Assembly (NCBI GenBank): GCA_965220085.1
Contig: CBDCOZ010000002.1
Span: 1-64,000, forward strand
Length of the DNA: 64,000 bases
Direction: 5' to 3'
Source of the DNA: Candidatus Oxydemutatoraceae bacterium
Lineage (GTDB): Bacteria; Pseudomonadota; Gammaproteobacteria; Poriferisulfidales; Oxydemutatoraceae
Both the position numbers and the translations under genes were made by a program. A model generated the notes under the pieces. That model had not been told where the DNA came from and did not search any database. It worked only from the letters and a program-made list of their open reading frames with translations. Below are positions 2,096-36,659 of this stretch, piece after piece (position 1 is the first letter of the stretch; every line of letters begins with the position of its first letter).

Positions 2096-2275
2096 CTGTG
2101 GCGACAACTCCTCCGACACGCCCCGCAGGCGCAGGTGTGCGCCCCCAAGACTCGGTTGCGCCCGCAGGCGGGTGTGCGGCATCCGGCACAATAAAATGAG
2201 GGCCATACAAAGTTCGCACCCCGCAGGCGCAGGTGTGCGTGTTGCTCGGATGCCCTTGCGGGGGCTTGTTGCATG

Positions 2276-2452
2276 CCATATTCCGATGTGTGGTATACTC
2301 GCGTCCTCGGGGCGAGCAAACATTCCTCAGGCTTGCCCCGTCCGCCGCCATTACGGTGTCTGGTATACTGGGGGCCTCGGGGTGGGCAAACTTACTCCTT
2401 AGGTTGGTTCGCCTCGTCCGTCACCATTACGGTGTTTGATATATTGGTGTCA
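2276..2452 (+). promoter_or_regulatory. Tandem TGGTATACT (extended -10-like) plus hairpin array, 2 full units and 1 terminal unit
   Basis: Units are tggtatact..cctc-GGGG(C/T)G(A/G)GC-loop-G(C/T)T(T/C)GCC(C/T)C-gtcc. Same family at 19273 and 22705. Confidence 0.55.
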
Positions 2453-2468
2453 TTATGATTGAAGTCTT

Positions 2469-4779
2469 ATGCAAGACCTGATTAAAAAGCTGATCAAAAA
2501 GTTGCCCGCGAGTTGTCTGCAAACAGAACCGATGCGCATGAAGTCTCTGCCTGCAAAACAAGGGCTTCCATCGGCACAGCAAGCGTTTCCATATGCCCCC
2601 CCCCCCCCCCCCCCCCCTGATTTTTGCTAGGGTTTGCGCGGTGATGCTCGCTTGCGCCAGTGTCTTCGCCACGAGTAGCGCCCACGCGCAAGCCAACAGC
2701 TGTGCGGCGGTCATCCACGGCACCGAATGCATGGACGCATGCCCCGCCGGATTCACCGCCACAACCCAAGACCGCGTGTGCGTTGAGACCGCGCACATCG
2801 ATGGCGCAAACAAATGCGAAGCCAAAGGATGGACAACCCGACTGACGTTTAACTTCGGTCTTTCCTTTTCCCTTTGCGACATAAAAACCGGCAACCTGAC
2901 ATCAACCAGGGACGTTTGCAGTTTTGGCGCCGGCGGCGGCGGCAGTTGCGTTTTTCGTTTCGGTCCGGATCTTAACTTTCCGCAGCGTCCGGCGGACGAC
3001 CCGGCGACGGCGGAAGACGAGAGCGACCCGCGCTATGTATACAACTGCGACACGGACGGAACCACCGGCCACCTTCCGGCGCGTTTCGTTGATGGGCGGA
3101 CGATGTGCGAATGTCCCGCCGGGGCGACAGAAAACGCAGATGGCGTGTGCACATGTCCGGCGCAAACCGTCCCGCTGGGCGAGGCTTGCCTTCCCAACAC
3201 GCCGGAAAACAGATGCAAAGCGGCGGGATGGACGGTCTCGGCCGACAACCAATGCGTCGTCCCCATCGCCTCTCCGGACGACGGTGATGCAAACGGATGC
3301 TTTTTGACCGGCAACGGCAGTCCGCAATGCGCCGATGTGTTCGGACTGGAGCTGTCGTTTCCAAGCCCGTCGACCGACTCCGCCGCGCGGTTTGTCTACG
3401 ACTGCGGTCTGGACATGATCCCGCCGCGCGCAAACACCGACGGCGCGACCGAATGCGCTCCCGACCCGCAAGCGTGCGCATTCGGCGATTTGGAATTTGT
3501 CGCACATACCAGCACACAGAGCAGGGCGCAAATTTCCATGCAGTTTGATGTCTGCGCGGAGAAAGGATGGCAGGCGAAAAAGCATCCCGATTTTGACTCC
3601 GTCTTTAGGGCTTGCTACTGCGACATAAAAGCATGGGATGTGGAACGCCATGACGCGTGCCCCGACCCCGTCCTTTCCTCCCGCTTCAGCCTTGCGGGCA
3701 ATACCGCCCTGCGCTACTACTTCGGCCCGACTCTGGAGTATCTGCCGCAATGGACGGCGGAAAACGCCGATGATTGTTTTGTGGCCTATTGTCAGGACGG
3801 GACGGAGCCGGCCGGGTTCAACACCAACGGCGCGACCGAATGCCAAACGCCCAGCGGGGAAGTTTGCGGCAGTTTGGATCCGCCGCAGGTTTACAACGGG
3901 TTTGTTTGCGTTGCGACGTGCTCGGCGGAGGCGACATTGGACGAGGCGACGAATACGTGCGAATGCAACACGGGCAATGCGGCGGACTGCCGAGTGCCAA
4001 GCACGGAGGCATGCGCGGATTTTACGCCGCCGCGGTTTTACAACGCGGGCGCGGCGCGGTGCGAACCGTTTTTAACCTGCGAACATCCGACGGAATTGCG
4101 CACGACGAGCAACACCTGCGAGTGCGTTTCTCCGTATGTCGGAACGCCTCCTGGTTGCCAGATGCCGTCGCCGGCGGTTTGCGGGGAATTGAGCGGGCCG
4201 CAGTTTTTCGACGGGACGACCTGCGTCGCCGGTAACCGATGTCCGGCGACAACGCACGCCAACACGGAGTCGCGCCGATGCGAATGCAACGATCGGGGCA
4301 AGGTTTACGACGCCGCGGCACAGGCTTGCGTTGCTGCTATTTCGTGTGCTGCGCCGGCGACATTGAGCGCGGAGACGGGCCAGTGCGCATGCGCTTCGCC
4401 CAACGAAGGGACGGCTTCGGATTGCCGCGCGCCGAGCGCGGAAGTGTGCGCGGGATTGATGCCGGCAAAGTTCTTTGATGTTGGCACGATGGCGTGCGTG
4501 GATGTTGCGCAATGCGCCGGGGCGGCGACATTGAACCCGACAGCGAATGCTTGCGCATGCGCCGCGCCCAACATAGGGACGGCTTCGGATTGCAGGGCGC
4601 CGAGCGCGGAAGTGTGCGCGGCGCAGACACCGGCAAAGTTTTTTGACGTTGGCACAACGGCTTGCGTTGATGTTGCGGAATGCGCCGCGCCGATGGTACT
4701 GGACGAGGCGACGAATACATGCGTGTCCGCCGACATCAACCTGCGCCTGCGCATCTTCCTCGAAGGCCCGTTGCGATAA
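2469..4779 (+). CDS. Cys-rich modular secreted protein with poly-C tract in its leader (likely phase-variable; main ORF 2593..4779)
   Basis: Leader MQDLIKK...PYAPPP from ATG 2469 joins the main ORF if C22 (2596-2617) is C21. Signal-peptide-like VMLACASVFATSSAHA-Q. Three CxxxGW-type domains. Ends DINLRLRIFLEGPLR*. Confidence 0.75.
2596..2617 (+). repeat. Poly-C homopolymer (C22), slipped-strand switch candidate
   Basis: Counted directly. Homologous position to the tracts at 19642 and 23119. Confidence 0.85.
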
Positions 4780-16155: not shown

Positions 16156-16189
16156 GACTTGCGACCTTCAAACAATCTAGCATACAAAG

Positions 16190-17512
16190 CGTAAGCACTC
16201 AGATGGCGCATGTCAACTCGCCCAGCCGCCGGCTCAGCTTCATGTTCTCGCGATAGTCTGTCGGCACCACCGCCAGACTCGGCCCGGCGGTGGCAAACGC
16301 CTGTCGCAGGCCGTCCGCCAACTCGCCGCTGTTTGTTATGCGCAACCCCTGCCAGCCAAAGGCCGCCGCCAGCTGCATCCAATCCGGATTGCCAAAACTC
16401 AGCGGCGCAGCGTAAGCGCTCAGATGGCGCATGTCAACTCGCCCAGCCGTCGGCTCAGCTTCATGTTCTCGCGATAGTCTGTCGGCACCACCGCCAGACT
16501 CGGCCCGGCGGTGGCAAACGCCTGTCGCAGGCCGTCCGCCAACTCGCCGCTGTTTGTTATGCGCAACCCCTGCCAGCCAAAGGCCGCGGCCAGTTGCATC
16601 CAGTCCGGATTGCCAAAACTCAGCGGCGCAGCGTAAGCGCTCAGATGGCGCATGTCAATTCGCCCAGCCGTCGGCTCAGCTTCATGTTCTCGCGATAGTC
16701 TGTCGGCACCACCATCAGGCTCGGCCCGGCGGTGGCAAACGCCTGTCGCAGGCCGTCGGCCAACTCGCCGCTGTTTGTTATGCGCAACCCCTGCCAGCCA
16801 AAGGCCGCGGCCAGTTGCATCCAGTCCGGATTGCCAAAACTCAGCGGCGCAGCGTAAGCGCTCAGATGGCGCATGTCAATTCGCCCAGCCGTCGGCTCAG
16901 CTTCATGTTCTCGCGATAGTCTATCGGCACCACCATCAGGCTCGGCCCGGCGGTGGCAAACGCCTGTCGCAGGCCATCGGCCAACTCGCCGCTGTTTGTT
17001 ATGCGCAACCCCTGCCAGCCAAAGGCCGCCGCCAGTTGCATCCAGTCCGGATTGCCAAAACTCAGCGGCGCAGCGTAAGCGCTCAGATGGCGCATGTCAA
17101 TTCGCCCAGCCGTCGGCTCAGCTTCATGTTCTCGCGATAGTCTGTCGGCACCACCATCAGGCTCGGCCCGGCGGTGGCAAACGCCTGTCGCAGGCCGTCG
17201 GCCAACTCGCCGCTGTTTGTTATGCGCAACCCCTGCCAGCCAAAGGCCGCGGCCAGTTGCATCCAGTCCGGATTGCCAAAACTCAGCGGCGCAGCGTAAG
17301 CGCTCAGATGGCGCATGTCAATTCGCCCAGCCGTCGGCTCAGCTTCATGTTCTCGCGATAGTCTATCGGCACCACCATCAGGCTCGGCCCGGCGGTGGCA
17401 AACGCCTGTCGCAGGCCGTCGGCCAACTCGCCGCTGTTTGTTATGCGCAACCCCTGCCAGCCAAAGGCCGCGGCCAGTTGCATCCAGTCCGGATTGCCAA
17501 AACTCAGCGGCG
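16190..17512 (-). repeat. 221-bp tandem repeat x6 consisting of the ALS 3' end
   Basis: The stop-codon context recurs at 16199, 16420, 16641, 16862, 17083 and 17304. Units differ by a few SNPs. Confidence 0.95.
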
Positions 17513-18953
17513 TGTGGCGGCCAAACTGTTGCTGTTGCTTCCAGGCTATCAGGCCGTAGGCGTGATCCTCCCAGACCATGCAGACGATGTCGCTGCCCAG
17601 CCGTTTGGCGGTCTCCATCTCCTGCGCATTCATCAGGAATCCGGCATCGCCGGCAATGGCCAACACCTTGCGCTCTGGGCGCACCAGGCTGGCGGCGATG
17701 GCCCCGGGCAGGGCAAAGCCCATGGAGCAAAAGCCGTTGGGAATCAGGCAGGTGTTGGGCTCGTGGCACTGGTAGTGACGCGCCACCCACATTTTGTGCG
17801 CGCCCACATCGGACAGCAATATGTCCTGCGGCCCCATCACCCGGCGCACATCCCACAGCACTTTCTGGGGCCTTATGCTGCCCTCGTCGGTGTCGTCTTT
17901 GTGCGCCGCCAGTTCCTCGCCCATCTGGCGGCGGGTGGCGGCCTGCTGTCTGGTGTCGGGGCAAAGCGGCTGTTTGGCCACGCGCTCATTGAGCATCCAC
18001 AGGCTGTGCGCCAGGTCGCCCACCACCTCCAGCTGCGGATGATAGTGCTCGTCCACCTCGGCCGGCAGAAAATCCAGATGCACTATCGCCTTGTCGCGAT
18101 TCGGGTTCCAGGTGCGCGGATGGTATTCCACCATGTCAAAGCCGATGGAGATGATCAGGTCGGCGGCATCCACCGCGCAGGTGACATAGTCCTTGCTGCC
18201 AAGCCCGATGGTGTACAGGCAGTAATCGGCATCCATGTCCACCGCGCCCTTGGCCATGAAGGTGTTCACCACGCCTATGCCGGTGGCCTCGCAAAACAGG
18301 CGCAGTTGCTTGCTGGCGCGCCGCCGGATGCAGCCGTTTCCGGCCAGTATCAGCGGCCTCTTGGCCTTGCGGATGCGCTCAAAGGCCTGGTTCATGATCT
18401 TGTCATCGGCCACCGGACGGCGGAAGTGCTGCACCGGCAGCGGCGCTTTGTCGCTCGGCTTCTTGGCGATGTCCTCGGCCAACTCAATGTGCACCGCCCC
18501 CGGTTTCTCAGTGCGCGCCAGACGCACGGCCTTGCGCACCACCTCCGGTATGCTGTCCGGATGGTATATGGATGTCGCCCACTTGGTGACCGGACGGAAC
18601 ATGGACACCACATCCATCACCTGATGCGATTCCTTGTGCAGGCGCGTGGATGCCCCCTGACCGGTCAGCACCAGTATGGGCGCGCGATCCATATTGGCAT
18701 CGCCGACACCGGTCAGCAGGTTGGTAGCGCCCGGCCCCAGAGTGCCCAGACAGCCGGCCGGCTCGCCGGTCAGGCGACCGTATATCTCGGCCATAAAGGC
18801 CGCGCCCTGCTCGTGGCGGGTCAGGATAAACTCTATCTTGTCGGACGCATCCAGCGACATCATAAAGTCGGCGTTCTCCTCCCCCGGCACACCGAATATG
18901 TAGCGGATGTTTTCCTCTTCCAGACACTTGACAAACAGATCTGATGCTTTCAC
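17304..18953 (-). CDS. Acetolactate synthase large-subunit family (ThDP-dependent)
   Basis: FGVPGEEN, TRHEQGAAFMA, TLGPGATN, SMGFALP and GDAGF motifs. Confidence 0.92.
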   Translation of the reverse strand: MKASDLFVKCLEEENIRYIFGVPGEENADFMMSLDASDKIEFILTRHEQGAAFMAEIYGRLTGEPAGCLGTLGPGATNLLTGVGDANMDRAPILVLTGQGASTRLHKESHQVMDVVSMFRPVTKWATSIYHPDSIPEVVRKAVRLARTEKPGAVHIELAEDIAKKPSDKAPLPVQHFRRPVADDKIMNQAFERIRKAKRPLILAGNGCIRRRASKQLRLFCEATGIGVVNTFMAKGAVDMDADYCLYTIGLGSKDYVTCAVDAADLIISIGFDMVEYHPRTWNPNRDKAIVHLDFLPAEVDEHYHPQLEVVGDLAHSLWMLNERVAKQPLCPDTRQQAATRRQMGEELAAHKDDTDEGSIRPQKVLWDVRRVMGPQDILLSDVGAHKMWVARHYQCHEPNTCLIPNGFCSMGFALPGAIAASLVRPERKVLAIAGDAGFLMNAQEMETAKRLGSDIVCMVWEDHAYGLIAWKQQQQFGRHTPLSFGNPDWMQLAAAFGWQGLRITNSGELADGLRQAFATAGPSLMVVPIDYRENMKLSRRLGELTCAI

Positions 18954-19269
18954 GGGCGTATCCTCCTGCGCGATGGACTGCCATCATAACCGCAAACCCT
19001 CCGCTTGACAATGCCCCGGATGGTGTCCGGACATAGCGGACACGTGGGGCGATAGAAACCTTGGCCACCGCAGCCGATGGGTTGCTATTGCAGCGTGTTG
19101 TGTTGAAGCCGGGAATCCGGAATGCTTCCGGCATTATGCATGACAACTCGTGGTGATGTCAGGAGTCCGGAATGTTTCCGGCATCGTGCATCACACCGCG
19201 AGCGCTCCTCGCGCGCCATCCCCTCAGTGCGTGCTCGGGCGCTTTTGTGAAGACTCCCTGCGCGCCGCC

Positions 19270-19502
19270 GCCATTCCAATGTCTGGTATACTGTGTCCTC
19301 GGGGTGAGCACTCCGGGCTCACCCCGTCCGTCATCGTTCCAGTGTCTGGTATGCTAGTGTCCTCGGGGCGGGCAAATGTTGCTCCTTGTGGCTCGCCCCG
19401 TCTGTCATCGTTCCAATGTCTGGTATACTAGTGTCCTCGGGGCGGGTAAACGTTACTCCTTGTGGCTCGCCCCGTCTGCCACCATTGCGGTGTTTGATAT
19501 GC
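19270..19502 (+). promoter_or_regulatory. Tandem extended -10 plus hairpin array (3 units and a terminal unit)
   Basis: ttccaatgtctggtatact..gtcctc followed by GGGG..CCCC stems. Confidence 0.55.
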
Positions 19503-19526
19503 CAGAGTTATTATGATCGAAGTCTT

Positions 19527-21940
19527 ATGCAAAACCTGATTAAAAAATTGCCTGCAAGTTGCCTGCAAACAGAACCGATGCGCATGAAGTCTCTGCCTGC
19601 AGAACGAGCGCTTCCATCGGCGAAGCAAGCGCTTCCATATGCCCCCCCCCCCCCCCCTTAATTTTTGCTAGAGTTTGTGCCTCATTAAAACATTGTTTGC
19701 GTGCATTGTGCGCGGCGATGCTCGCTTGCGCTGGTGTCTTTGCCGCGAACACCGCACACGCACAAAGCGAACAATCCAACTGCACATTCAGCGAGGTCGC
19801 CTCTTCCGTCCACTCCTCCGCGCGCGAGCAGGTCTCCCGAATGTTCGACGCCTGCGCGGAAAAGGGATGGGCCATCTTCAAATCCCCCGCCTTTGACATC
19901 GTGCAAGAGTGCTACTGCAATGTCAAGGCGCGGGACGCGTCCCAGCCGGAGCATAATGACTGCCGGAGTTATATTCCCTCCTCCCGGCTGATTTCCAACG
20001 CGGGCAAGCGGCAACTGCACCATTACTTCGGCGCGACCCTGCAGTATCTTCCGGAGCGGACGGAGGAAAACAAGGACGCCTGCTTTGTGGCGCATTGTCC
20101 GGATGGGAAGGAGCCGTCGGGGTTTAATATGAACGGCGAAACCGAATGCGCAACGCCCTCAACGGCGGTGACGGTTCGCGCCATAGCGATGCCGGCAGAG
20201 GGCGGGAGCGCTGCCATTATGGGCGCGACCACCGCCTCGGTGATTCTCAACACCACCGCAACCATCGTCGCCACTCCGGCGGAGGGATGGTATGTCGATC
20301 GGTGGGAAGGCGACGGCGGCGCTTGCGACGGTCAAACCGGCAGGCTCGAAGGTTTCAGGGGCGTGGACACAGACGAGAAATCTTGTTCGCTGCCCGCCGG
20401 CGCCGGACTGACTGTGACGGCGCATTTTGCGTTGGCGCGGGTGACGGTTCGCGCCATAGCGATGCCGGCGGAAGGCGGGAGCGCTGCCATTATGGGCGCG
20501 ACCACCGCCTCGGTGATTCTCAACACCACCGCAACCATCGTCGCCACTCCGGCGGAGGGGTGGTATGTTGACCGATGGGAGGGGGACGGCGGGGCCTGCG
20601 CCGGACAAGTTGGCGGGTTTGGAAGTTCCGGAGCGGCGGACACGGATGAAAAATCCTGCTCGCTGGCCGCGAGCGCCGGACTGACTGTGACGGCGCATTT
20701 CGCATCGGCGCTTTGTGTCTACGACGAGCTTCCGGCGGGACTGCAAACCGTTGCTGTCGACCAACAGATTGACGCGTGCAACGCGAAAGGATGGGGGGCG
20801 CGCAAACACATTGTCGGCGGAAGCACATTGTGCCACTGCAACATCAAGGCGTGGGACGGGAGGCGCGGCGACCCGGCCCGGCAATCGTGTTTGGACGGCT
20901 CCCTCCCGCCGCATCGAACCTCCGAGTTTTCCGCGCGTGGAGACACAGATGCCAACACGGCCGCGACATATTACTTCGGCGCGACCCTGCAACATCTTCC
21001 GGAGCGGACGGAGGGAAACAAGGACGATTGTTTTGTGGCGCGATGTCCGGGGGCGACGGAACCGTCCGGATTCAACACCGGAGGCGAAACCGAATGCCGA
21101 GCGCCAAGCGGGGCGGTTTGCGGGGGTTTGACTCCGGCGAAACATTTTGACGGCGTTGTCTGCGTGGAAAGTTGCGCAACGGGGGCGACATTGAATGCGG
21201 CGACGAATGTTTGCGAATGCGACACGGGAAATTCGGACGATTGTTTAACGCCGAGCGAGGAGGTTTGCGCGGCGCTGACTCCGCCGAAGTTTTTTGACGG
21301 GTCGGATTGCGTTGATTTTGCGACTTGCGCGGGGCTGTTGACTTTGAATCGGCAACGTAACGGGTGCGAGTGCCGCACGCCGAATAGGGGAACGCCTTCA
21401 AACTGTCTTGCGCCGAATCCGGTTGTTTGCGCCGCGCCGGCGGTTCGGCATCCGACGGCGAATGTTTGCCAATGCAATGCGCCGAATGTGGGGACAGGTG
21501 CGGATTGCAAAGCGCCCAGCGAGACGGTTTGCGGGGATTTGATGCCGGCGCAATTCTTTGACGAGACGATGTGCATTGATTTTGTTTCGTGTGATGCGCC
21601 GATGGTGTTGGACACAGCGATGAATATGTGCGCGGCACCGAGCGAGGAAGTGTGCGCGGATTTGATGCCGGCGAAATTCTTTGACGAGACGATGTGCGTT
21701 GATTTTGTTTCCTGCGATGCGCCGATGGTATTGAATACGGCGACGAATATGTGCGCGACACCGAGCAAGGAAGGGTGCGCGAGTTTGACGCCGGCGAAAT
21801 TCTTTGACGAGACGATGTGCGTTGATTTTGTTTCCTGCGATGCGCCGATGGTGTTGGACACAGCGATGAATACGTGCGTTGAGGCGTCCGACAACATCAA
21901 CTTGCGTCTGCGCATCTTTCTTGAAGGCCCGTTGCGATAA
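19527..21940 (+). CDS. Cys-rich modular secreted protein, poly-C leader (likely phase-variable; main ORF in track 19559..21940)
   Basis: Leader MQNLIKKLPAS...PYAPPPPP from ATG 19527 joins the main frame if C16 (19642-19657) is C17 or C14. Signal MLACAGVFAANTAHA-Q. Two CxxxGW domains and two InlB-B-like domains. Ends in the tag. Confidence 0.78.
19642..19657 (+). repeat. Poly-C homopolymer (C16)
   Basis: Counted directly. Confidence 0.85.
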
Positions 21941-21989
21941 CCCGCATCACTCCGCCCAAGCCAACTGTGATCACGCCTTCTTGTGCGGG

Positions 21990-22212
21990 CATTGCAATCG
22001 CTTTGCCACCGATTGCGCACATTTTCACTGAGCGCTCCCCTTTGCAAGCGGCGGCGCTTCGGCAATGTCGGCGGCAACGGTTACTCCTTGCGCAGGCTTT
22101 GCGATTGCTTTGCCGCCGATTGCGCACATTTTCACTGAGCGCACCCCCTTTGCAGGCGGCGACGCTTCGGGCAGTGTTGTCGGCAACGATTACTCCTTGC
22201 GCAGGCTTTGCA
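21990..22212. repeat. ~108-bp imperfect tandem duplication
   Basis: gctttgcc(a/g)ccgattgcgcacattttcactgagcgc occurs twice. Confidence 0.8.
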
Positions 22213-22695
22213 CATTTATAATGTGTCATGTCTTCTAAAAGCGATTATGCCTCTTTTGCCCAACTATGATTACGCCTCCCTGCGGGCTTTGCGCATTGCT
22301 CGCCGTAAACACTCTTGCCTCGCAGGAGTCGGCAAGCCACGGGGGGCAACCGGCAGGCAGCTTGGCAACACTTATGAATGTGTCATGTCTTCTAAAAGTA
22401 ATCACCCCTCCTTTGCGGGGGCTTTGCGCATTGCCCGCCGTAAACACTCTTGCCTCGCAGGAGTCGGCAAGCCACGGGGGGCGACCGGCAGGCAGCTTGG
22501 CAACACTTATGAATGTGTCATGTCTTCTAAAAGTAATCACCCCTCCTTTGCGGGGGCTTTGCGCATTGCCCGCCGTAAACACTCTTGCCTCGCAGGAGTC
22601 GGCAAGCCACGGGGGGCGACCGGCAGGCAGCTTGGCAACACTTATGAATGTGTCATGTCTTCTAAAAGCGATTACGCTTCCTTTGCGGGGGCTTG
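22213..22695. repeat. 135-155-bp tandem repeat array (about 4 units)
   Basis: AATGTGTCATGTCTTCTAAAAG at ~22220, 22377, 22512 and 22647. Confidence 0.9.
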
Positions 22696-22702
22696 TTGTG
22701 CG

Positions 22703-23012
22703 CCGCCGTTCCAATATCTGGTATACTGTGCCCTCGGGGCGAGCAGACATTCCTCAGGCTTGCCCCATCCGCCACCATTCCAATGTCTGGTATACTGTGT
22801 CCTCGGGGTGAGCACTCCGGGCTCACCCCGTCCGTCACCATTCCAGTGTCTGGTATGCTAGTGTCCTCGGGGCGGGTAAATGTTGCTCCTTGTGGCTCGC
22901 CCCGTCTGTCACCGTTCCAATGTCTGGTATAATGGTGTCCTCGAGGCGGGCAAACTTGTTTCTCGGCCCGCCTCGTCCGTCACCATTGTGGTGTTTGATA
23001 TGCCGGTGTCAT
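22703..23012 (+). promoter_or_regulatory. Tandem extended -10 plus covarying hairpin array (4 units and a terminal unit)
   Basis: Stems ggggcgagc/gcttgcccc, ggggtgagc/gctcacccc, ggggcgggt/gctcgcccc and gaggcgggc/gcccgcctc. One unit has a perfect TGGTATAAT. Confidence 0.6.
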
Positions 23013-23027
23013 TATGATTGAAGTCTC

Positions 23028-25161
23028 ATGCAAAACCTGATTAAAAATTGTCTGCAAGCAGAACCGATGCGCATCACATATCCGCTCGCAAACAAGCGGT
23101 TCCGTGTGTATCATATAGCCCCCCCCCCCCCCCCTAATTTTTGCCAGAGTTTGCGCGGTGCTGTTTGAGAAGCACCTTTGGTCGTCGCTTGTCAGTGGCT
23201 TAATTCGTAACTGGACTTGCGCGGTGCTGTTTGTTTGTGTCTTCGCCACAAACACCGCACACGCACAAGCCGACCAATCCAACTGCGCGCTCAGCGACGC
23301 CGTCACCGAGTTTCCCTCCTCCGCGCACGCGCAAATTTCCCAGCAGTTTAACGCTTGCGCGAACAACGACTGGGCTGTGCTGAAGCATCCCGGCTTCGGC
23401 TTCGGGGCGAACCTTGACCGCTGCTACTGCAACATCAAGGTGCGGGACGCGACTTTGCATTCCGCCAACTGTAGCCACCCCTCTCAAACTTCCGTATTCA
23501 GCGTCACCGAAAGTATCGGCAACCTCCGCTATCACTTCGGCGCAACATTGCAACACCTGCCGCGGCGGACGGAGGAAAACAAGGACGCCTGCTTTGTGTC
23601 GCACTGTCCGGACGGGGAAGAGCCGTCCGGATTTAATACGAATGGCGCAACCGAATGCGCAACGCCCTCAACGCCGGTGACGGTTCGCGCCATAGCGATG
23701 CCGGCGGAGGGCGGGAGCGCTGCCATTATGGGCGCGACCACCGCCTCGGTAATTCTCAACACCACCGCGACCATCGTCGCCACTCCGGCGAAGGGATGGT
23801 ATGTCGATCGGTGGGAAGGCGACGGCGGCGCTTGCGCCGAACAAACCGGCAGGCTCGGAGGTTTCAGGGGCGTGGACACAGACGAGAAATCTTGTTCGCT
23901 GCCCGCCAGCGCCGGGCTGACTGTGACGGCGCATTTTGCGTTGGCGCGGGTGACGGTTCGCGCCATAGCGATGCCGGCGGAAGGCGGGAGCGCTGCCATT
24001 ATGGGCGCGACCACCGCCTCGGTAATTCTCAACACCACCGCGACCATCGTCGCCACTCCGGCGGAGGGATGGTATGTCGATCGGTGGGAGGGCGAAGGCA
24101 ACGCATGCGCCGGACAAACCGGCGGGTTTGGAAGTTCCGAAGTCGCGGACACGGACGAGAAATCTTGTTCGTTGCCCGCCAGCGCCGGACTGACTGTGAC
24201 GGCGCATTTCGCATCGGCGCTTTGTGTCTACGACGAGCTTCCGGCGGGACTGCAAACCGTTGCTGTCGACCAACAGATTAACGCGTGCAACGCGAAAGGA
24301 TGGAGCGCGCGCAAACACATTGTCAGCGGAGTCACATTATGCCACTGCAACATCAAGGCGTGGGACGGGGGGAACGGCGACCCCGCCCGACAGTCGTGTC
24401 TGAACGGCTTATGGCCGCCGCACCAAACCTCGGGCTTTCACGCGCGCGGAGACACGAACTCCAATTTGTTTGCCCCATTTTACTTTGGCGCAACCCTGCA
24501 ACACCTTCCGCAACGGACGGAGGAAAACCAGAATGATTGTTTTACAGCGCGATGCGCGGGCGGGGCGGAACCGTCGGGATTCAACACCGACGGCGAAACC
24601 GAATGCCAGGCGGCAAGTGCGCAGGTGTGCGGGGATTTGACGCCGACGAAACACTTTGACGGCGGCGCCTGCGTGGAAAGCTGCGCGATGGCGGCGACAT
24701 TGAACCCGACAACGAATACGTGCGAATGCAACGCGCCGAACGTGGGGACGGCGCAGGATTGCAGAACCGCCACGCCGGCGAACTGCGAACGTTTGCAAGG
24801 GACTCAATTTTTCGACGGGACGACTTGCGTTCAAACTTGTCCGGGGGCCTCGGTCGGAAACACGCAGACGCATGAGTGCGAATGTCTTGCGTCGAATACG
24901 GGGACAGTTTCGGACTGTCGCGCGCCGGACGGGGGGACGGAGCCGGTTGTTTGCGCGGGGGTAGCGGTTCGGAATCCGACGGCGAATGTTTGCGAATGCA
25001 AATTGCCGAATGTGGGGACGGGTTCGGATTGCAAGGCGCCGAGCGCGGAAGTTTGCGCGGATTTGACACCGCCGAAGTTCTTTAACAGGATGGCCTGCGT
25101 CGATGCGCCCGACGACATCAACTTGCGTCTGCGCATCTTTCTTGAAGGCCCGTTGCGATAA
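23028..25161 (+). CDS. Cys-rich modular secreted protein, poly-C leader (likely phase-variable; main ORF 23158..25161)
   Basis: Leader MQNLIKNCLQAEPMR...IAPPPP from ATG 23028 joins the main frame if C16 (23119-23134) is C15 or C18. Signal AVLFVCVFATNTAHA-Q. Same architecture as 19527. Ends in the tag. Confidence 0.78.
23119..23134 (+). repeat. Poly-C homopolymer (C16)
   Basis: Counted directly. Confidence 0.85.
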
Positions 25162-25189: not shown

Positions 25190-26212
25190 GAGGATGCCTC
25201 CTTTGCGGGGGCTTCTTGCACACCGCCCGCCGTAAGCGCTCCCGCCTTGCAGGAGAATTGGCAAGCCACGGGGGGCGACCGGCAGGCAGCCCGGCGACAT
25301 TTATAATGTGTCATGTCTTCTAAAAGCAATCACCCTCCTTTGCCAACTGTAATCACTCCTTCTTTGCGGCTTTGCGCATCGCCCGCCGTAAACACTCTCG
25401 CCTCGCAGGAGAGTCGGCAAGCCACGGGGGCTGATCGGCAGGCAGCCCGGCGACATTTATAATGTGTCATGTCTTCTAAAAGTAATCACCCTCCTTTGCC
25501 AACTATGATCACTCCTTCTTTGCGGCTTTGCGCATCGCCCGCCGTAAGCGCTCCCGCCTTGCAGGAGAATTGGCAAGCCAAGGGGGGCAACCGGCAGGCA
25601 GCCCGGCGACATTTATAATGTGTCATGTCTTCTAAAAGCAATCACCCTCCTTTGCCAACTGTAATCACTCCTTCTTTGCGGCTTTGCGCATCGCCCGCCG
25701 CAAGCGCTCCCGCCTTGCAGGAGTCGGCAAGCCACGGGGGCTGATCGGCAGGCAGCCCGGCGACATTTATAATGTGTCATGTCTTCTAAAAGCAATCACC
25801 CTCCTTTGCCAACTGTAATCACTCCTTCTTTGCGGCTTTGCGCATCGCCCGCCGCAAGCGCTCCCGCCTTGCAGGAGAATTGGCAAGCCAAGGGGGGCGA
25901 CCGGCAGGCAGCCCGGCGACATTTATAATGTGTCATGTCTTCTAAAAGCAATCACCCTCCTTTGCCAACTGTAATCACTCCTTCTTTGCGGCTTTGCGCA
26001 TCGCCCGCCGCAAGCGCTCCCGCCTTGCAGGAGAATCGGCAAGCCACGGGGGCTGATCGGCAGGTAGCCCGGCGACATTTATAATGTGTCATGTCTTCTA
26101 AAAGCGATTACACCTCCTTTGTGAAGGCTTTGCACATTGCCCGCCGTAAGATCTCTCGCCTTGCAGGAGTCGGCAAGCCACGGGGGGCGATCGGCAAGCA
26201 GCCCGGCGACAG
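25190..26212. repeat. ~156-bp tandem repeat array (6-7 units)
   Basis: TTATAATGTGTCATGTCTTCTAAAAG at 25301, 25457, 25613, 25767, 25923 and 26079. Confidence 0.95.
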
Positions 26213-27575: not shown

Positions 27576-28084
27576 TATTTATCCTCAAGTAAGCGCACAA
27601 TTTTTTCAACCGCTTCATCTGCTGTGCCATTGTTGTCAACTTCAAAGACAGCCGCTTCGCGGTAGAGCGGCGTTCGTGCGCGGTCTAATTCCTTTATTTT
27701 CTCTTTTATGCTTCCATCATCAAGCAAGGGGCGTCCGCGCCCGTCGCCGATGCGCTCGCGGCGCGACTCCCGCGCCACCCTCAGATAGACCGCAATGCCG
27801 GTTTTCATCAACGCGCGACTGCCCGCATCCAGCGGTGCGCCGCCGCCGGTCGCAATAACCGTCGCCCGCTCTGCGGCAATCCGCCGCAACGCCGCGGCCT
27901 CGCGGGCGCGAAACCCGCTTTCTCCCTCGCGCGCGAAAATCGTTCCGATATCACACCCCGCGGCGTCGGCTATCAAACTGTCAAGGTCATAAAAGCGGCG
28001 GCCCAAACGGTCGGCCAGCTTTTTGCCTACCGTTGTCTTGCCCGATGCCATCGGCCCGATTAAAAAAACATTACGCTGTTTCAT
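27575..28084 (-). CDS. aroK: Shikimate kinase
   Basis: GPMASGKTT, GESGFR, ATGGG and RPLL motifs. Upstream of aroB. Confidence 0.96.
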   Translation of the reverse strand: MKQRNVFLIGPMASGKTTVGKKLADRLGRRFYDLDSLIADAAGCDIGTIFAREGESGFRAREAAALRRIAAERATVIATGGGAPLDAGSRALMKTGIAVYLRVARESRRERIGDGRGRPLLDDGSIKEKIKELDRARTPLYREAAVFEVDNNGTADEAVEKIVRLLEDK

Positions 28085-28126
28085 TCAGTGCTAGAATCTA
28101 GTTTTTACCATACCGCAAATTGCGTC

Positions 28127-30502
28127 TTGAAAACCCGTTACAAAGTCTTGCTCTTGCTCTTCGCTGCGCCCATAGTAGCCTTATTCGGCATTTATATCTA
28201 TGTCGGGCAGAGTTTGCCGTCCATCCCGGAGATACGCCAAGTGCAAGTGCAAGCGCCGCTTCGGGTCTATTCAAGAGACGAAAAGCTTATCGCATCTTTC
28301 GGCGACAAGCAGCGCGTGCCGATTCTCTACGAACAGATTCCGCGGGATATGTTAAACGCATTTCTCGCCGCCGAGGACGATCGCTTCTTTGAACACGTGG
28401 GGGTGGATTACGAAGGGCTGGTGCGCGCCGCCATCAATTTGATACAAACCGGCGAGCGCACGCAAGGCGGCAGCACCATCACGATGCAACTCGCGCGCAA
28501 TCTGTTTCTGACCAAGCAGAGAACCTTTGAAAGAAAGTTCAAGGAAATATTTACGGCGCTGATGCTGGAGCGGGTATTCACAAAAGAGGAGATCTTCAGC
28601 CTCTACCTCAATAAAATATTCTTCGGCAAGCGCGCCTATGGCGTGGCCGCCGCCGCCGAAATCTATTACGGCAGGACGGTTGACGAGCTCAACCTGCCGC
28701 AGATTGCCATGCTTGCGGGGTTGCCCAAAGCGCCGTCGTCTTATAACCCGCTCGCCAATCCGGACAAAGCATTGGAGCGGCGCGGCTATGTGCTCGGGCG
28801 AATGCTTGAACTCAATATGATAGACCAAGCGCAACACGATGCGGCCGATAACGCGCCCATCAGCGCCGAGCGACACGCGCTCAAGGTGGAACTGCAAGCA
28901 CCTTATGTCGCGGAGATGGTGCGCGCGCAGATAGTGGAGGAATACGGCCCCGAGGCATACACCAGCAGCTTTGAGGTCTACACGACTATCGACAGCTTGT
29001 TGCAGGAAAGCGCCGGACAGAGCCTGCGCGAGGGGCTGTTGAAATACGACAGACGCCACGGCTGGCGCGGAACAAAGGAGCGACTCGACCCGCTCGCCGC
29101 GGACTTTGATGCGCGGGCGCGAGAAACGCTCGCCGCCATGCCCCGCATCGGCGAGCTCGTCCCGGGAGTGGTCACCCGCGCGAGCGCGACAACGCTCGAT
29201 GTCACACTGAAGGACGGCGCGCAAACGCATCTCGGCCCTTCGGCGTGGCGATGGGCGCGCAAACGTATCGATGAGGACCGGCAGGACGCGCGTCCGGAAT
29301 TCGCAACGACGGTGGCCTCAACCGGCAGTGTCGTCTATGTAAACGCCGGCGCACAACCGCCGCGCCTGGCACAGCTGCCCGATGTCGCGGGCGCATTGGT
29401 CGCGCTGGATACGAACACCGGCGCTATCCTCGCGCTAAACGGCGGCTTTGACTTCAGCCTCAGCAAGTTCAATCGCGCCACGCAAGCCAACCGGCAACCG
29501 GGCTCAAACTTCAAACCCTTCATTTACTCCGCCGCGTTCGCCGAGGGCTACACCCCGGCATCCATCGTCATTGACTCGCCGGTCGTGTTTGCCAATTCGC
29601 ACTTTGACTGGCGCCCGGAAAATTACAGCGGCAAATTTTTCGGGCCGACCAGATTGCGCGATGCGCTGAAACGCTCGCGCAACTTGATCTCTATCAAACT
29701 GGTTGACGACATCGGCATAAAAGAAACGCTCGACTACATCCGCCGCTTCGGTTTTGAGCGCCGAGACCACCCGCACAATATGACGCTCGCGCTCGGCTCG
29801 GGCACGGTCAGGCCGCTTGATATGGCGCGCGCCTACGCCGTGTTTGCGAACGGCGGCTTCTTGCTTGAGCCGCAACTGATCGAGCGCATCGAAAGGAGCG
29901 GGGAGGTCCTGTTTGAGAAGCGAGCGCTGCGACTGTGCAACGAGGACTGCGACGGTATGGATGACAGCGGCGATATGGGTGACAGCAGTGATATAGATGC
30001 CAGCGGACAATTCGCGCACCGCGCAATCCCGGCCGACATCGCTTATCAGATGACGAGCATGATGAAAGATGTCATCCGCGAAGGCACCGGTCGCCGCGCG
30101 CGCGCGTTGCGCCGCAGCGACATTGCCGGCAAGACCGGAACGACCAACGACCAGCGCGATGCCTGGTTCTCCGGCTTCAATCGCGACATCGTGGCCACCG
30201 TCTGGGTCGGCTTTGACGACCACCGCCCGCTCGGCGCCCACGAAACCGGTTCCAAAGCCGCGTTGCCGATATGGATTGACTTCATGCGCACCGCGCTGGA
30301 CGGGCGCGCCGAACGCGGATACTTCAAGCCGTCCAACATCATCAGCGCGCTCATCGACCGCGACAGCGGCTTGCTCGCGCACCCGAGCGACAGCGACGGC
30401 ATCAGCGAAACGTTCCGCGCGGAGTTCCTGCCGAAAGAGATAGCGCCCGAGAAAGGCGACGACAATACCGTGCCGGAACCGGTCGAGAAAAAACTCTTTT
30501 AA
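28127..30502 (+). CDS. mrcA: Penicillin-binding protein 1A
   Basis: EDDRFFEH, GGSTITMQ, RQPGSNFKP, SRN and KTGTT motifs. Start at 28088 or 28127. Confidence 0.95.
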   Translation: MKTRYKVLLLLFAAPIVALFGIYIYVGQSLPSIPEIRQVQVQAPLRVYSRDEKLIASFGDKQRVPILYEQIPRDMLNAFLAAEDDRFFEHVGVDYEGLVRAAINLIQTGERTQGGSTITMQLARNLFLTKQRTFERKFKEIFTALMLERVFTKEEIFSLYLNKIFFGKRAYGVAAAAEIYYGRTVDELNLPQIAMLAGLPKAPSSYNPLANPDKALERRGYVLGRMLELNMIDQAQHDAADNAPISAERHALKVELQAPYVAEMVRAQIVEEYGPEAYTSSFEVYTTIDSLLQESAGQSLREGLLKYDRRHGWRGTKERLDPLAADFDARARETLAAMPRIGELVPGVVTRASATTLDVTLKDGAQTHLGPSAWRWARKRIDEDRQDARPEFATTVASTGSVVYVNAGAQPPRLAQLPDVAGALVALDTNTGAILALNGGFDFSLSKFNRATQANRQPGSNFKPFIYSAAFAEGYTPASIVIDSPVVFANSHFDWRPENYSGKFFGPTRLRDALKRSRNLISIKLVDDIGIKETLDYIRRFGFERRDHPHNMTLALGSGTVRPLDMARAYAVFANGGFLLEPQLIERIERSGEVLFEKRALRLCNEDCDGMDDSGDMGDSSDIDASGQFAHRAIPADIAYQMTSMMKDVIREGTGRRARALRRSDIAGKTGTTNDQRDAWFSGFNRDIVATVWVGFDDHRPLGAHETGSKAALPIWIDFMRTALDGRAERGYFKPSNIISALIDRDSGLLAHPSDSDGISETFRAEFLPKEIAPEKGDDNTVPEPVEKKLF

Positions 30503-30507
30503 TGGGG

Positions 30508-30830
30508 GACACTCTCCCCGCACAGGCAGAGTATAAATTAGCGCCGCAAGCACTCTCCCCTTGCGGGAGAGTCGCAGAGCCCAAGCCGCAGGCGAAGGGC
30601 GATGCGGTGAGGGGGAAGGGAACTCGTGCAAGCCAGAAGCTCGCCCCCTCTCCGGCAACCTGCGGGCTTCGCCCTTGGTTTGCCGACTCCCACAAGGGGG
30701 GAGTGTTAGTTAACACCGTGTAACACTTTCCCCTTGTGGGCGGAGTATAAATTAGCGCTACAAGCACTCTCCTCGCACAAGCGGAGTATAAGTTAGCGCC
30801 GTAAACACTCTCCCCTCGCGGCGGAGTGTT
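30508..30830. repeat. REP/MITE-like palindromic element cluster
   Basis: Repeated cactctcccc(tt)g..ggagagt palindromes. ~60 bp nearly identical to 36308-36372. Confidence 0.65.
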
Positions 30831-30888
30831 AGAATGTGTCGGAACACGAGAACAAAATGGCAGAAACACACCCGCCACTTAAACGTTC

Positions 30889-31806
30889 ATGAAGTTACTG
30901 ACATGCGAGTACGAAGGCAAAGCGCATCTGGGGGCGCTTTGCGATGACACCGCCGTATACCTGCCGGCCTTGGACGCGCGATGGCGCGCGCGCAACTTGC
31001 CGACCGATATGTTGGCGCTGATAGACGCCGGCGCGCCGGCGCTGGATGTCTTGCGCGCGCATGTAGCGCCGGGGGGCGCCGTTGCCGGCGGCGCGATGTA
31101 TGTGGCAATGAACGCCGTGCGCTTGCTCGCGCCGATTCCGCGTCCGCGCCAAAATGTGCTGTGCCTGGGCTGGAATTATCAAGACCATGTCACCGAGTCC
31201 GCAACAGTCAAAGGCGACATCAAACAAACCGAAAAGCCCGACGCGCTGATCGTGTTCACTAAGTCGCCGCTGTGCGTGTGCGGCCCTTACGACGACATCC
31301 CTTACGACCCCGAAATATCCAAACGGCTGGATTGGGAGGCGGAGTTGGCCGTGGTCATCGGGCGGGCGGGGCACAAGGTCGCGCCCGCCGAGGCGCTCGA
31401 TTATATATTCGGGTACACGGCGGTCAATGACATCTCGGCGCGCGAATTGCAGAAGCGCCACCGCCAGTTTTATCTCGGCAAAAGCGTGCCCAAGTCCTGC
31501 CCTATGGGACCTTATATTGTCACGCCCGATGAGGTAGGCGACGCGCAGAGCTTGCGCTTGCGCAGCCGTGTCAATGGCGTGACCAAGCAGGATGCGAGTA
31601 CCGCCGATCAGATTTTTGACATCAAAGAAACCATCGCAACCATTTCCAAAAGTCCGGCGATCGCAGCCGGCGATATCATCGCAACGGGCACGCCCGCGGG
31701 TGTCGGCTTCGCGCGCAAGCCGCCCGAGTATCTGCGGCCGGGCGATGTGGCGGAGTGCGAAGTGGAAAAGATCGGCGTCTTGCGCAACCGCATTGTGAAC
31801 GCGTAA
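30889..31806 (+). CDS. Fumarylacetoacetate hydrolase family protein
   Basis: GWNY..H, FTK, DWEAEL, NDISAR, GKS..CPMGP and GDIIATGTPAGVG motifs. Confidence 0.92.
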   Translation: MKLLTCEYEGKAHLGALCDDTAVYLPALDARWRARNLPTDMLALIDAGAPALDVLRAHVAPGGAVAGGAMYVAMNAVRLLAPIPRPRQNVLCLGWNYQDHVTESATVKGDIKQTEKPDALIVFTKSPLCVCGPYDDIPYDPEISKRLDWEAELAVVIGRAGHKVAPAEALDYIFGYTAVNDISARELQKRHRQFYLGKSVPKSCPMGPYIVTPDEVGDAQSLRLRSRVNGVTKQDASTADQIFDIKETIATISKSPAIAAGDIIATGTPAGVGFARKPPEYLRPGDVAECEVEKIGVLRNRIVNA

Positions 31807-32238
31807 GATACGCCGACGAACGCCGCATCAACCCGTCAAGCTGTCAGCTTATATCGTTGGTCGCCCGCGCCTGCGTCCAAACCGACGAACGCCGCATCAA
31901 TCCGTCAAGCTGTCAGGAAACGACGCCAACGCGGGTACCGCACTCAAGGCCGGGTGTGGCGAAATAACAACACTACATCGCAAGTTAGAAGGTAAATAAA
32001 TGAATAATTTGCTGTTTTGTGCATTTTATCGTCGGCACGAAAACCAACGGCAATCAATTAAGTTAATGAATTTCTGGGGAAAATTCAAAAAGGGCAAGAA
32101 ACCGATTTATAACATATATTGCGGAGTTTTGCAATAACTTTGTAATGTGGTGTATGCTTGGGGAACTGTGAAAAACCAGACCTCATTAACAGAGGTCGGT
32201 TTCTCAAATTGAATCTGTTGATTAATGGAGTTAGTAAT

Positions 32239-33453: not shown

Positions 33454-33474
33454 GCTGGTATTAACACAGTAAGA

Positions 33475-33507
33475 GCCCTGCCTGAGCTTCTCAGGCAGGG
33501 CATTTTC
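33475..33507 (+). terminator. Hairpin/terminator after the monooxygenase
   Basis: gccctgcctgag-cttc-tcaggcagggc followed by atttt. Confidence 0.55.
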
Positions 33508-33570
33508 TATAAACAACGAATTCAATAAACTAATTTATTAATCACTAAATAATCAAGAGGGGAAAAAACA

Positions 33571-34218
33571 ATGGCTATAGGTGATCGTTTAAGAAGTGCA
33601 GTAACTCTCTGGGGCGCCCCGGATTGTGTGAACACTGCAAAGTGCCTGATGACAGCGGGCGAAAAAGGCATGTCTGTTAAGACAGCGATGTTTGATCCGA
33701 GTTCATCGGAAATTCAGAGCATGTCGCCGCTGGGCGTCGGACCTGTTCTGCGCCACGTCGACTTCGTCGTGACGGGGCATACCGCAATCATGTCGTATAT
33801 GGATGACAAGGGCTTTGGTCCTTCGCTCGTCCCGAGAAACGGCGTTCTGCGCGCAACCATGTATGAATGGTGCGTCAATGCGATAATCGTCTTGCAACCG
33901 AAGATGGACGACAGCGGGACAGTTGACAAGTGCGTAGCCGCGCTTGATAAGCAACTGCAAAGCACAAACCCGTCCCATCGCGGTTCGTTTATTTGCGGCG
34001 ACTTTACTCTCGCCGACATCCACTGGGCGGCCTGTGCGAATATGTTAGACATCAAAGGCATGGGCAATGTGCTCGAAAGAAGCAGCGCCGTCGCCGAGTG
34101 GTGGAGCAAGGTAAAGACCCATCCGAGCACCAGCAAGGAGAAACTGGAACCTTATACCTGCATGCCGACCAAAGCCGATGTCGATAGCAACACGCTAAGA
34201 GATTTGGACGTTAAGTAG
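33571..34218 (+). CDS. Glutathione S-transferase family protein
   Basis: SPLGVGPVL, AIMSYMDD and FICGDFTLADI (GST C-terminal motif). Confidence 0.8.
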   Translation: MAIGDRLRSAVTLWGAPDCVNTAKCLMTAGEKGMSVKTAMFDPSSSEIQSMSPLGVGPVLRHVDFVVTGHTAIMSYMDDKGFGPSLVPRNGVLRATMYEWCVNAIIVLQPKMDDSGTVDKCVAALDKQLQSTNPSHRGSFICGDFTLADIHWAACANMLDIKGMGNVLERSSAVAEWWSKVKTHPSTSKEKLEPYTCMPTKADVDSNTLRDLDVK

Positions 34219-34230
34219 AGGAGCGTAACA

Positions 34231-34473: not shown

Positions 34474-34538
34474 TTTTAGACAGCGCCCGACTCCGATGAA
34501 CGGGGTCGGGTGCCGTCTGAACTACGGAGGGTTATTCT

Positions 34539-35888: not shown

Positions 35889-35916
35889 GAATCCGAAACA
35901 CTAAGGAGGGAAGAAA

Positions 35917-36585: not shown

Positions 36586-36659
36586 GCTTGCACAGCTATC
36601 GCATTACTGCCCGCAAGGCTGGCACGAGTACCGGAAACCTTTGTCTTAACACAAAATAA

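Follow-up and report, generated by a model that had tools for sequence, protein, structure and literature searches.

Stem-loops at the 5' end of the Escherichia coli ompA and papA leaders reportedly stabilise the mRNAs that carry them (work from the Belasco laboratory). A single bacterial gene can also be served by promoters in series, as at rrn P1/P2, or by promoter tandem repeats and intergenic variable-number tandem repeats (VNTRs) whose repeat number changes by recombination or slippage. Here we describe an arrangement that may draw both themes together, found in a 64,000-nt stretch (contig C2:1-64000, hereafter the window) of the genome of Candidatus Oxydemutatoraceae bacterium, where short arrays of a 63-74-bp unit, typically an extended -10 box followed by a hairpin, stand upstream of surface-protein genes that begin with a poly-C tract. 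On balance we think it probable, judging from the DNA, that the units are tandem promoter cassettes, each launching a transcript with a protective 5' hairpin, stacked before the poly-C switch and exchanged between paralogs.

Like the ompA and papA stabilisers, these units would place a stable hairpin at, or within a few nucleotides of, a predicted 5' end in a genome that encodes an RNase E homologue; unlike them, promoter and hairpin are repeated together one to four times in tandem, the start is deduced from the box, and no equivalog of RppH was found. Compared with rrn P1/P2 and VNTRs, there are up to five boxes at a period of 63-74 bp, each tied to a predicted RNA hairpin, and the cassette is common to paralogous phase-variable genes. 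Short GC-rich palindromes in intergenic DNA are also the hallmark of repetitive extragenic palindromic and bacterial interspersed mosaic elements (REP/BIME) and of the Correia elements of Neisseria, which occur in hundreds of dispersed copies, often as inverted pairs, and depend on a transposase; Correia elements can in addition carry promoters and form RNA hairpins. The present unit differs from them in its 13 copies, all direct and gathered in five arrays, and in the lack of a Y1 transposase in the genome. Finally, Listeria LhrC1-5 and Staphylococcus aureus RNAIII are RNAs whose CU-rich loops mask ribosome-binding sites, and the LhrC genes are multicopy, partly tandem and directed at surface-protein mRNAs. 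Our arrays likewise hold several hairpins with CU-rich loops that resemble an anti-Shine-Dalgarno (anti-SD) sequence, but no terminator follows them and the pairing is a predicted one.

Two further systems are close in layout. At hmw1A/hmw2A of Haemophilus influenzae, a repeat tract in the 5' untranslated region (5'-UTR) forms a long hairpin that is cut by RNase III and sets the level of the adhesin (PMC12721329). There, as here, repeats lie upstream of a phase-variable, adhesin-type gene; that transcribed repeats act via RNA structure, with their number linked to expression, is a feature of hmw that we predict for our arrays as well. In place of 7-bp simple repeats and one long hairpin we find units of 63-74 bp with their own box and 10-bp hairpin each, and switching on and off falls to a separate poly-C tract within the start of the coding sequence. 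The NsiR1 small-RNA array of heterocystous cyanobacteria, present in Anabaena as 12 copies that each have a separate promoter (PMC4030482), is similar in being a head-to-tail series of short units beside a gene, each with a promoter motif (11 of 12 units here) and a structured RNA. NsiR1 units yield a discrete 60-nt RNA, whereas our units lack a terminator and would be transcribed onwards into a protein gene; the two also differ in promoter type and are unrelated in sequence. The arrangement is a variant of 5' stem-loop stabilisers, tandem promoters and VNTRs, the hmw repeat hairpin and tandem small-RNA arrays, and not a new kind of system.

Results and Discussion

A promoter-like box and a hairpin recur as one unit in five arrays

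In the genome (2.49 Mb in three contigs, 55.7% G+C, 99% complete), 12 units are complete, at 63-74 bp, and one is partial; all lie on the sense strand and in direct orientation. They form five arrays: A1, A2 and A3 inside the window and A4 (C3:1581001) and A5 (C3:1959691) outside it, with 2, 3, 4, 1 and 2 units, respectively. An earlier description of the window, made from its letters alone (the sequence-only reading), had placed two units near 2276, three near 19270 and four at 22703-23012, had given their length as 62-75 bp, and had seen each array close with a degenerate terminal unit just before the leader ATG. Re-reading the sequence recovers these arrays, with full units of 63-74 bp, and locates terminal boxes in A1, A2 and A3; the one in A3, a degenerate fifth box TTGTGGTGTTTGATATGCC, starts at 22986 and continues into ATGATTGAAGTC. 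A4 consists of one full cassette and a second box without a hairpin.

Allowing up to three mismatches, a 19-nt core (TTCCAATGTCTGGTATACT) matches nine times in the window, always on the plus strand, and not once in 100 dinucleotide shuffles. A covariance model (R1) built from the 12 full units, of the kind that the sequence-only reading had proposed for a genome-wide search, gave 13 matches in the genome, every one inside the five arrays beside genes of a single subfamily and none scattered, and a pattern for the hairpin alone had no genome match outside these arrays. Since the matches of both are confined in this way, the element is not a dispersed repeat.

Within an array, the tail of the previous unit, GTC(C/T)GTCA, supplies a -35-like CYGTCA, and a 16-nt spacer that contains the conserved TTCCAATGTC leads to the extended -10, which reads TGGTATACT in most units, TGGTATGCT twice and TGGTATAAT once. 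Seven to eight nucleotides, (A)GTGTCCT, separate the -10 from a GC-rich stem, CGGGGYGRGY with RCYYRCCCCG, that had been described as 9 bp long and measures 10 bp once the closing C:G pair is counted. The loop spans 7-19 nt, as had been stated, and the tail from the stem to the next unit reads GUCCGUCACCAUUCC / GTCCGTCACCATTCC. The terminal box (TGATATATT in A1 and A5, TGATATGCC in A2 and A3) has no hairpin and, at four loci, is followed within 10 nt by a conserved 8-codon upstream open reading frame (uORF), MIEVLCKT*. Two other readings of the unit were rejected by eye: a sigma-54 promoter (there is no GC at -12) and a minus-strand mini-ORF (there is no consistent start codon).

The box resembles the promoters of the wider poly-C family

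There are 90 runs of at least nine C or G in the genome, nearly all of them a few codons into a gene. Many other genes of this kind are preceded by the same extended -10, there combined with a good -35 (TTGCAA): TGGTATANT occurs 84 times in the genome, mostly as TGGTATAGT with CTTGCAA about 18 nt upstream, in what looks like a textbook arrangement of a -35 plus an extended -10. The TGGTATAGT boxes sit 160-550 nt ahead of the poly-C tracts. A box of this type is present within 700 nt upstream at 44 of the 90 tracts, and two or more are present at 12 of them. Clear doublets at other poly-C genes have their boxes 59-84 bp apart and carry no GC hairpin; given these counts and distances, doubled promoters appear to be a habit of the whole family. 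Examples stand at C3:125586/125647, 157695/157756, 626105/626164 and 1676777/1676844, in the order CTTGCAA, some 18 nt, TGGTATAGT, GCGACA.

In the arrays, TGn directly precedes a TATAAT-like hexamer (TGGTATACT, TGGTATGCT or TGGTATAAT) in 11 of 12 units. A consensus promoter scan recognised two internal units as full promoters (CTGTCA, 16 nt, TATAAT or TATACT, upstream TG), and promoter-like sites in the scanned region numbered 5, compared with 1.2 expected. Furthermore, the extended -10 is the least diverged segment of the unit: across the 12 units, the mean pairwise difference is 0.09-0.11 in the extended -10, 0.10-0.19 in TTCCAATGTC, 0.17-0.20 in the stems, 0.20-0.43 in the tails and 0.56-0.67 in the loops. 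At A2, the gene upstream is divergent and no co-directional gene reads into the array, so that the A2 gene lacks any other evident promoter and would have to be served from the array or its immediate neighbourhood. An RNA polymerase open complex covers roughly the length of one unit, 63-74 bp, and adjacent boxes could therefore be occupied simultaneously. One proposal of the sequence-only reading, tandem promoters with a structured 5' leader, consequently stands at the level of sequence, by the identity of the box, its conservation and a hairpin on the sense-strand RNA.

The hairpin bears the marks of a sense-strand RNA structure

Standard pairs form in 119 of the 120 stem cells (12 units times 10 pairs), and in slid controls pairing falls to 39-53%. 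The compensatory stem changes that had been noted earlier are present, thinly sampled: three of the ten pairs have changed on both sides (four cells), with modest support from shuffle controls. These changes run from G:C to A:U, C:G to U:A and A:U to G:C, the G·U intermediate of each occurring in other units, and the observed number of compensated cells was reached by 8 of 500 shuffles, the covariation score by 6 of 500. The strongest signal for structure at the RNA level is an asymmetry between strands, with 18 G·U cells against a single A·C or, counted by unit class, about nine events against one. C-to-T mutation bias does not explain the excess of G·U, because polymorphic columns outside the stems are balanced between C/T (nine) and A/G (seven).

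Predicted stabilities tell the same strand apart. Sense RNA is stabler than antisense in 11 of 12 units (mean 4.3 kcal/mol), with RNA folding energies of -16 to -21 kcal/mol and DNA-parameter energies of -2.5 to -12.9. Nine hairpins folded singly gave -18.7 to -21.9 kcal/mol (z -1.9 to -4.35). When whole leaders were folded, z was -5.4 for A3 and -1.6 for A2; arms of different units paired in A3, which we take as an artefact of similar stems. Pairing, G·U asymmetry and sense-strand stability together suggest that the structure has been selected as RNA in the direction of the gene, and selection at that level excludes cruciform, single-stranded DNA (ssDNA) and operator readings.

This matters for a group of DNA-level explanations that tandem imperfect palindromes with variable centres naturally call to mind, namely REP/BIME elements with a REP-associated tyrosine transposase (RAYT) or other HUH enzyme, attC-like sites, an operator array or a CRISPR-like array. 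We find such explanations hardly credible. Searching the 99%-complete genome for the Y1 transposase domain (PF01797) gave 0 matches, while the control search was positive in 6 of 14 reference genomes; copies are not dispersed and all units share the direct orientation. In DNA the 18 G·U cells would be mismatches and folding is worth as little as -2.5 kcal/mol, and a loop length that varies from 7 to 19 nt would shift the spacing of half-sites. On these grounds (no Y1 transposase, no copies outside the arrays, direct orientation, 18 G·U) the suggestion that the hairpins are ssDNA substrates for an HUH/RAYT-type enzyme falls. The remark that the arrays are CRISPR-like in appearance only was right: the loops are diverged homologues of one another, shared between arrays and too short for spacers.

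Stems this strong (-16 to -22 kcal/mol) could alternatively terminate transcription or insulate, blocking read-through from an upstream paralog or separating the promoters, and A1, A3 and A5 do lie downstream of co-directional paralogs. We regard this as very unlikely. Reading the sequence and scanning it for terminators revealed neither a U-run nor a second hairpin between any stem and the next box (the tail being GUCCGUCACCAUUCC), no unit hairpin was called terminator-like, and A2 has no co-directional gene upstream. Canonical terminators with a hairpin and a T-run do exist elsewhere, a clear example lying at 33475; a scan of 28000-47900 found 32 where 26.2 were expected, which is not an enrichment. 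The absence of a U-run or other terminator after the stem also removes the discrete short hairpin RNA that the sequence-only reading had offered as one possible product.

The predicted position of the hairpin is close to the start of the transcript. The stem begins 7-8 nt past the -10, which is 1-2 nt from the assumed +1 (the usual seventh nucleotide). When all 116 TGGTAT[AG]NT sites of the genome are ranked by folding energy over the first 45 nt from the assumed +1, the 11 array boxes take the 11 lowest places, at -18.8 to -22.0 kcal/mol compared with a median of -6.7. The genome encodes an RNase E/G domain homologue (E 3.6e-97, in a 786-aa frame). Secondary structure at the 5' end is known to stabilise bacterial mRNA, RNase E and RppH being dependent on a 5' end that is single-stranded (PMC3997798). 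Rfam returned 0 matches at the gathering score in the window, and 0 at E up to 1 over 22200-23200.

Paralogs have gained and lost whole cassettes

Grouped by identity, the units form five classes, a (A1u1, A5u1, A3u1), b (A2u1, A3u2), c (A2u2, A3u3, A2u3), d (A1u2, A5u2, A3u4) and e (A4u1), and in these terms A3 reads a-b-c-d, A2 b-c-c', A1 and A5 a-d, and A4 e. Such compositions imply several gains or losses of whole cassettes after gene duplication, and the observation that unit number differs between paralogs extends to all five loci (1, 2, 2, 3 and 4). Identity is 95% for A3u2 with A2u1 and also for A3u3 with A2u2, in keeping with the earlier statement that arrays reuse each other's loops; between A3u1 and A1u1/A5u1 it is 78-79%. 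Identity between classes is only 57-79%, which indicates that the copies are old.

Contigs that cover 18800-23500 from four runs of one study are broken in the repeats, and none spans an array. One of them, a 273-nt contig from run X1 (22639-22911) that covers units 1-3 of A3, differs from the window at 22838, 22840 and 22877, each time towards the A2 version; it may be an allele that arose by recombination in the population, or else a chimera of short-read assembly.

Tandem duplication is widespread here, with 36 rows from Tandem Repeats Finder (TRF) in the window alone. This supplies a mechanism of origin for the arrays and, by the same token, a rival account in which they are neutral leftovers of a high rate of duplication, one ancestral promoter-hairpin having been copied and the extra copies being functionless. 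The decay of one unit (A5u2) and the position of the biggest array before a damaged gene would sit well with such neutrality. Nevertheless, we consider it quite unlikely. Old as the copies are, 11 of 12 retain a usable -10 and 12 of 12 a stem, the latter by way of G·U and compensated pairs, and the loops have diverged by 0.56-0.67 compared with about 0.1 for the box. Age together with this selective conservation of box and stem argues that the copies are not mere debris.

How far does the unit reach beyond this genome? A BLAST search of the array against 61 genomes matched the genome's own five loci and, apart from these, only poly-C runs in two other genomes. Across 19 family genomes, R1 gave two weak matches in one genome (G010; 24 and 20 bits), coding-like and with neither box nor hairpin. 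Exact-pattern scans of two large collections of metagenome and genome contigs gave 0 matches, records of the genome itself having possibly been left out, and a protein-guided search of the same two collections for homologues of the downstream genes produced 347 and 84 pattern matches, among which tblastn identified no relative. What relatives in other genera and families do share is an ATG-poly-C-TAATTT start. Two genomes of the same order, one from another family (G019, 1480-1530) and one from another genus (G006, 1490-1520), have ATAGATG, 25 C and TAATTTCTGC at this position, with no promoter-hairpin units upstream. Because relatives have the start and not the units, the arrays look as if they had been added, in this lineage, to a gene architecture that is older.

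The arrays precede one subfamily of surface-protein genes

The genes behind the arrays all encode members of a single subfamily of Cys-rich secreted proteins that ends in ...RLRIFLEGPLR, part of a very large family whose genes open on a long run of C, and there is no array elsewhere. In this subfamily the start ATG adjoins the poly-C tract and is not preceded by an SD. The tracts at A1 and A5 (22 C) are in frame, and that at A4 is interrupted (CCTCCTTCCTTCCCC), which locks the gene on; the A4 locus (C3:1581071-1581200), where the leader differs too, is in this sense a phase-locked paralog. Mature N-termini differ between A1/A5 and A2/A3/A4, and array, leader and signal peptide therefore behave as a common 5' cassette.

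The poly-C leaders (2455-2620, 19513-19660, 23014-23137 and C3:1959864-1960030) offer an ATG in two of three frames, one leading to a short MPPP... start at the tract and the other to a leader of about 50 aa, MQ(D/N)LIKKL.... Two phases of the tract could consequently yield protein, with different N-termini. Gene 3, behind A3, has a TAG just before the tract and ATA in place of ATG (23116-23160), as well as an insertion of about 60 nt in the signal-peptide region, flanked by duplicated TTGCGCGGTGCTGTTTG; it may be a decaying copy, or it may start at GTG 23158.

A model of stacked promoters with protective hairpins

What we infer from this layout is that the boxes fire, with starts where the -10 would put them, that the hairpins stabilise the message and that their number has a dosage effect. 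Each unit would be a complete promoter cassette of the sigma-70 type, aimed at the downstream gene. A transcript from a given box would begin with the hairpin, preceded by roughly 0-2 unpaired nucleotides, and a start at a box further upstream would leave the later hairpins within the 5' leader of the transcript. As sense RNA, the hairpin would most likely protect the front of the message and so keep RNase E from its 5'-end-dependent decay. The arrays would have arisen by tandem duplication and then been kept under selection, with whole cassettes gained or lost between paralogs to give a-b-c-d, b-c-c' and a-d, and the number of cassettes may set transcript output atop the on/off switch of the poly-C tract.

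A number of observations weigh against this interpretation. The internal -35 elements (CTGTCA or CCGTCA) match at only four or three of six positions, no more than two units reach the threshold of the consensus scan, and on reading the sequence a -35 element is not present before the first unit of each array. In A5u2 three T-to-C changes have turned the -10 into CCGGCACACT while all 10 stem pairs were kept, which shows that units are redundant and that a hairpin can be retained without a promoter of its own. The gene behind the three-unit array A2 is out of frame (16 C), and the start ATG of the gene behind A3, the largest array with four units, reads ATA; together with the decay of A5u2, the damaged start behind the largest array shows that some cassettes are dispensable. 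A search for an RppH equivalog was negative: of two Nudix ORFs, one is NudB-like and the other unassigned, and neither reaches the RppH model. As to the stems, 57 of 500 shuffle controls reached the observed number of compensated pairs, a modest result, and the sample consists of 12 interrelated units in about five classes from one genome. The searches yielded no relatives for an independent comparison.

Several of these points would be accommodated if there were just one working promoter, be it the first box, the terminal one or one further upstream. The internal units would then be a repeated 5'-UTR module with hairpins that act in the leader, for example as sites of processing or protection, and their boxes would be kept by gene conversion or for a role at the RNA level. 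The ten pairs retained in A5u2 next to a decayed -10, the weak internal -35 elements and the sharing and shuffling of units between arrays, which fits conversion, all speak for this scenario. Stems of 10 bp are short for RNase III, which tells against it. There is a precedent in the 5'-UTR repeat hairpin of H. influenzae hmw, where cleavage by RNase III governs expression (PMC12721329). We nonetheless judge a single promoter improbable, if worth serious consideration: no segment has diverged less than the extended -10, even when classes of only 57-79% identity are compared, and the hairpin keeps a fixed 7-8 nt from every box, as an element that works close to the start would need.

Loops that resemble the tail of 16S rRNA

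The loops themselves provide a further lead. CUCC or CCUC occurs in 10 of 12, and the loops of classes c, d and e read UUACUCCUU or UUGCUCCUU, the complement of AAGGAGUAA; AGGAGTAA has 61 copies in the genome and lies upstream of 21 of the 90 tracts. The 3' end of the 16S rRNA of this bacterium (C3, minus strand, near 198538) reads ...GGATTACCTCCTTAAAG, and the A1u2 loop, CUUACUCCUUAGG (window 2388-2406), is the 16S tail minus one C (UUACUCCUUA compared with UUACCUCCUUA). These loops are predicted to pair more strongly with 58 family starts than with 613 generic SD-bearing starts (Mann-Whitney p 2e-8 to 7e-5, values inflated by the kinship of the family start regions); the motif had been noticed before the comparison was made. 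As a control, the 16S tail shows no preference for family start regions. Four loop classes, including A3u4 and A5u2, show no preference for family starts in predicted pairing.

Imagine, then, that the hairpins were regulatory RNAs mimicking the anti-SD, with loops that pair with the SDs of other poly-C genes and dampen them. The CU-rich loops, their likeness to the 16S tail and the better predicted pairing with family starts point that way, and the subfamily behind the arrays, having no SD before its ATG, would escape. We doubt this model strongly. The motif was chosen post hoc, the start regions are kin, and in four loop classes no preference is seen; there is no terminator to free a discrete small RNA; and any CU-rich loop pairs with an SD, so the loop could be a relic without a present role. 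It is likewise a long shot, resting on modelled pairing, that transcription of an array dampens translation of SD-dependent paralogs (about 85 other poly-C genes, many using AAGGAGUAA). If the loops did act as anti-SD decoys, the phase-variable surface proteins would be ranked in a hierarchy, the dose being set by the number of cassettes.

The usual picture of a phase-variable surface-gene family is a bank of on/off switches. In a genome with some 90 homopolymer tracts, one subfamily would have a second heritable and potentially graded control ahead of the switch, a cassette that can be added, removed or swapped between paralogs by recombination. If stacked promoters with protective hairpins are what the arrays are, they illustrate the tuning of a surface repertoire in an uncultured host-associated bacterium, and should the boxes fire and cassette number scale output, nature would offer in them a counterpart of the stacked promoters and 5' hairpins by which engineers raise expression. 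A functional resemblance between loops and 16S tail would mean cross-talk between family members. Even inert cassettes would still record a habit of duplication that shapes regulatory DNA.

Features of the three loci and their surroundings

Table 1. Coordinates of the arrays inside the window, their putative elements and the genes that follow them
Feature	Position	Strand	Remarks
Array A1, two putative cassettes	2271..2424	+	units from 2281
A1 boxes	2291-2299, 2361-2369	+	
A1 hairpins (predicted)	2308-2340, 2378-2416	+	
A1 terminal box P' and leader	2425..2617	+	TGATATATT at 2437-2445; uORF ATG 2455
Gene 1 start ATG and poly-C tract	2593; 2596-2617	+	22 C, in frame = ON
Surface-protein gene 1	2593..4779	+	shared 5' cassette and LEGPLR tail; mature N-terminus different
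Array A2, three putative cassettes	19264..19484	+	units from 19274
A2 boxes	19284-19292, 19347-19355, 19421-19429	+	
A2 hairpins (predicted)	19300-19326, 19364-19400, 19438-19474	+	
A2 terminal box P' and leader	19485..19657	+	TGATATGCC at 19495-19503; uORF ATG 19513
Gene 2 poly-C tract	19642-19657	+	16 C; ATG 19639 out of frame with mature protein
Surface-protein gene 2, portion 3' of poly-C tract	19658..21940	+	
Array A3, four putative promoter-hairpin cassettes	22699..22985	+	
A3 full units	22709-22777, 22778-22840, 22841-22914, 22915-22985	+	69, 63, 74, 71 bp
A3 extended -10 boxes	22719-22727, 22788-22796, 22851-22859, 22925-22933	+	third box TGGTATGCT, fourth box TGGTATAAT
A3 RNA hairpins (predicted)	22735-22767, 22804-22830, 22868-22904, 22942-22975	+	
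A3 terminal degenerate box P'	22986..23013	+	no hairpin; TGATATGCC at 22996-23004; uORF ATG directly after, 23014
Leader of gene 3	23014..23134	+	uORF MIEVSCKT*, leader ORF, poly-C 23119-23134 (16 C)
Cys-rich surface-protein gene 3	23158..25161	+	Flg_new_2 domain; tail ...RLRIFLEGPLR; start damaged

Directly after the stop codons of surface genes lie tandem arrays of another kind (window 1725-2084, 22284-22694 and 25216-26121), with units of 124, 135 or 156 bp in 2.9, 3.0 and 5.8 copies. These units contain a TATAAT-like word and small GC hairpins (CCCC..GGGG, CTTGCC..GGCAAG), and at A1 and A3 the last copy adjoins the first of the putative promoter cassettes. Within the island of surface genes, between Cys-rich repeat genes, there is an ORF for a C-5 cytosine DNA methylase (6950-7984, E 3e-63). 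Finally, six 98%-identical tandem copies of 221 bp (16188-17512) at the 3' ends of an aldehyde dehydrogenase gene and a thiamine pyrophosphate (TPP)-enzyme gene make up a chain of 162-aa ORFs.

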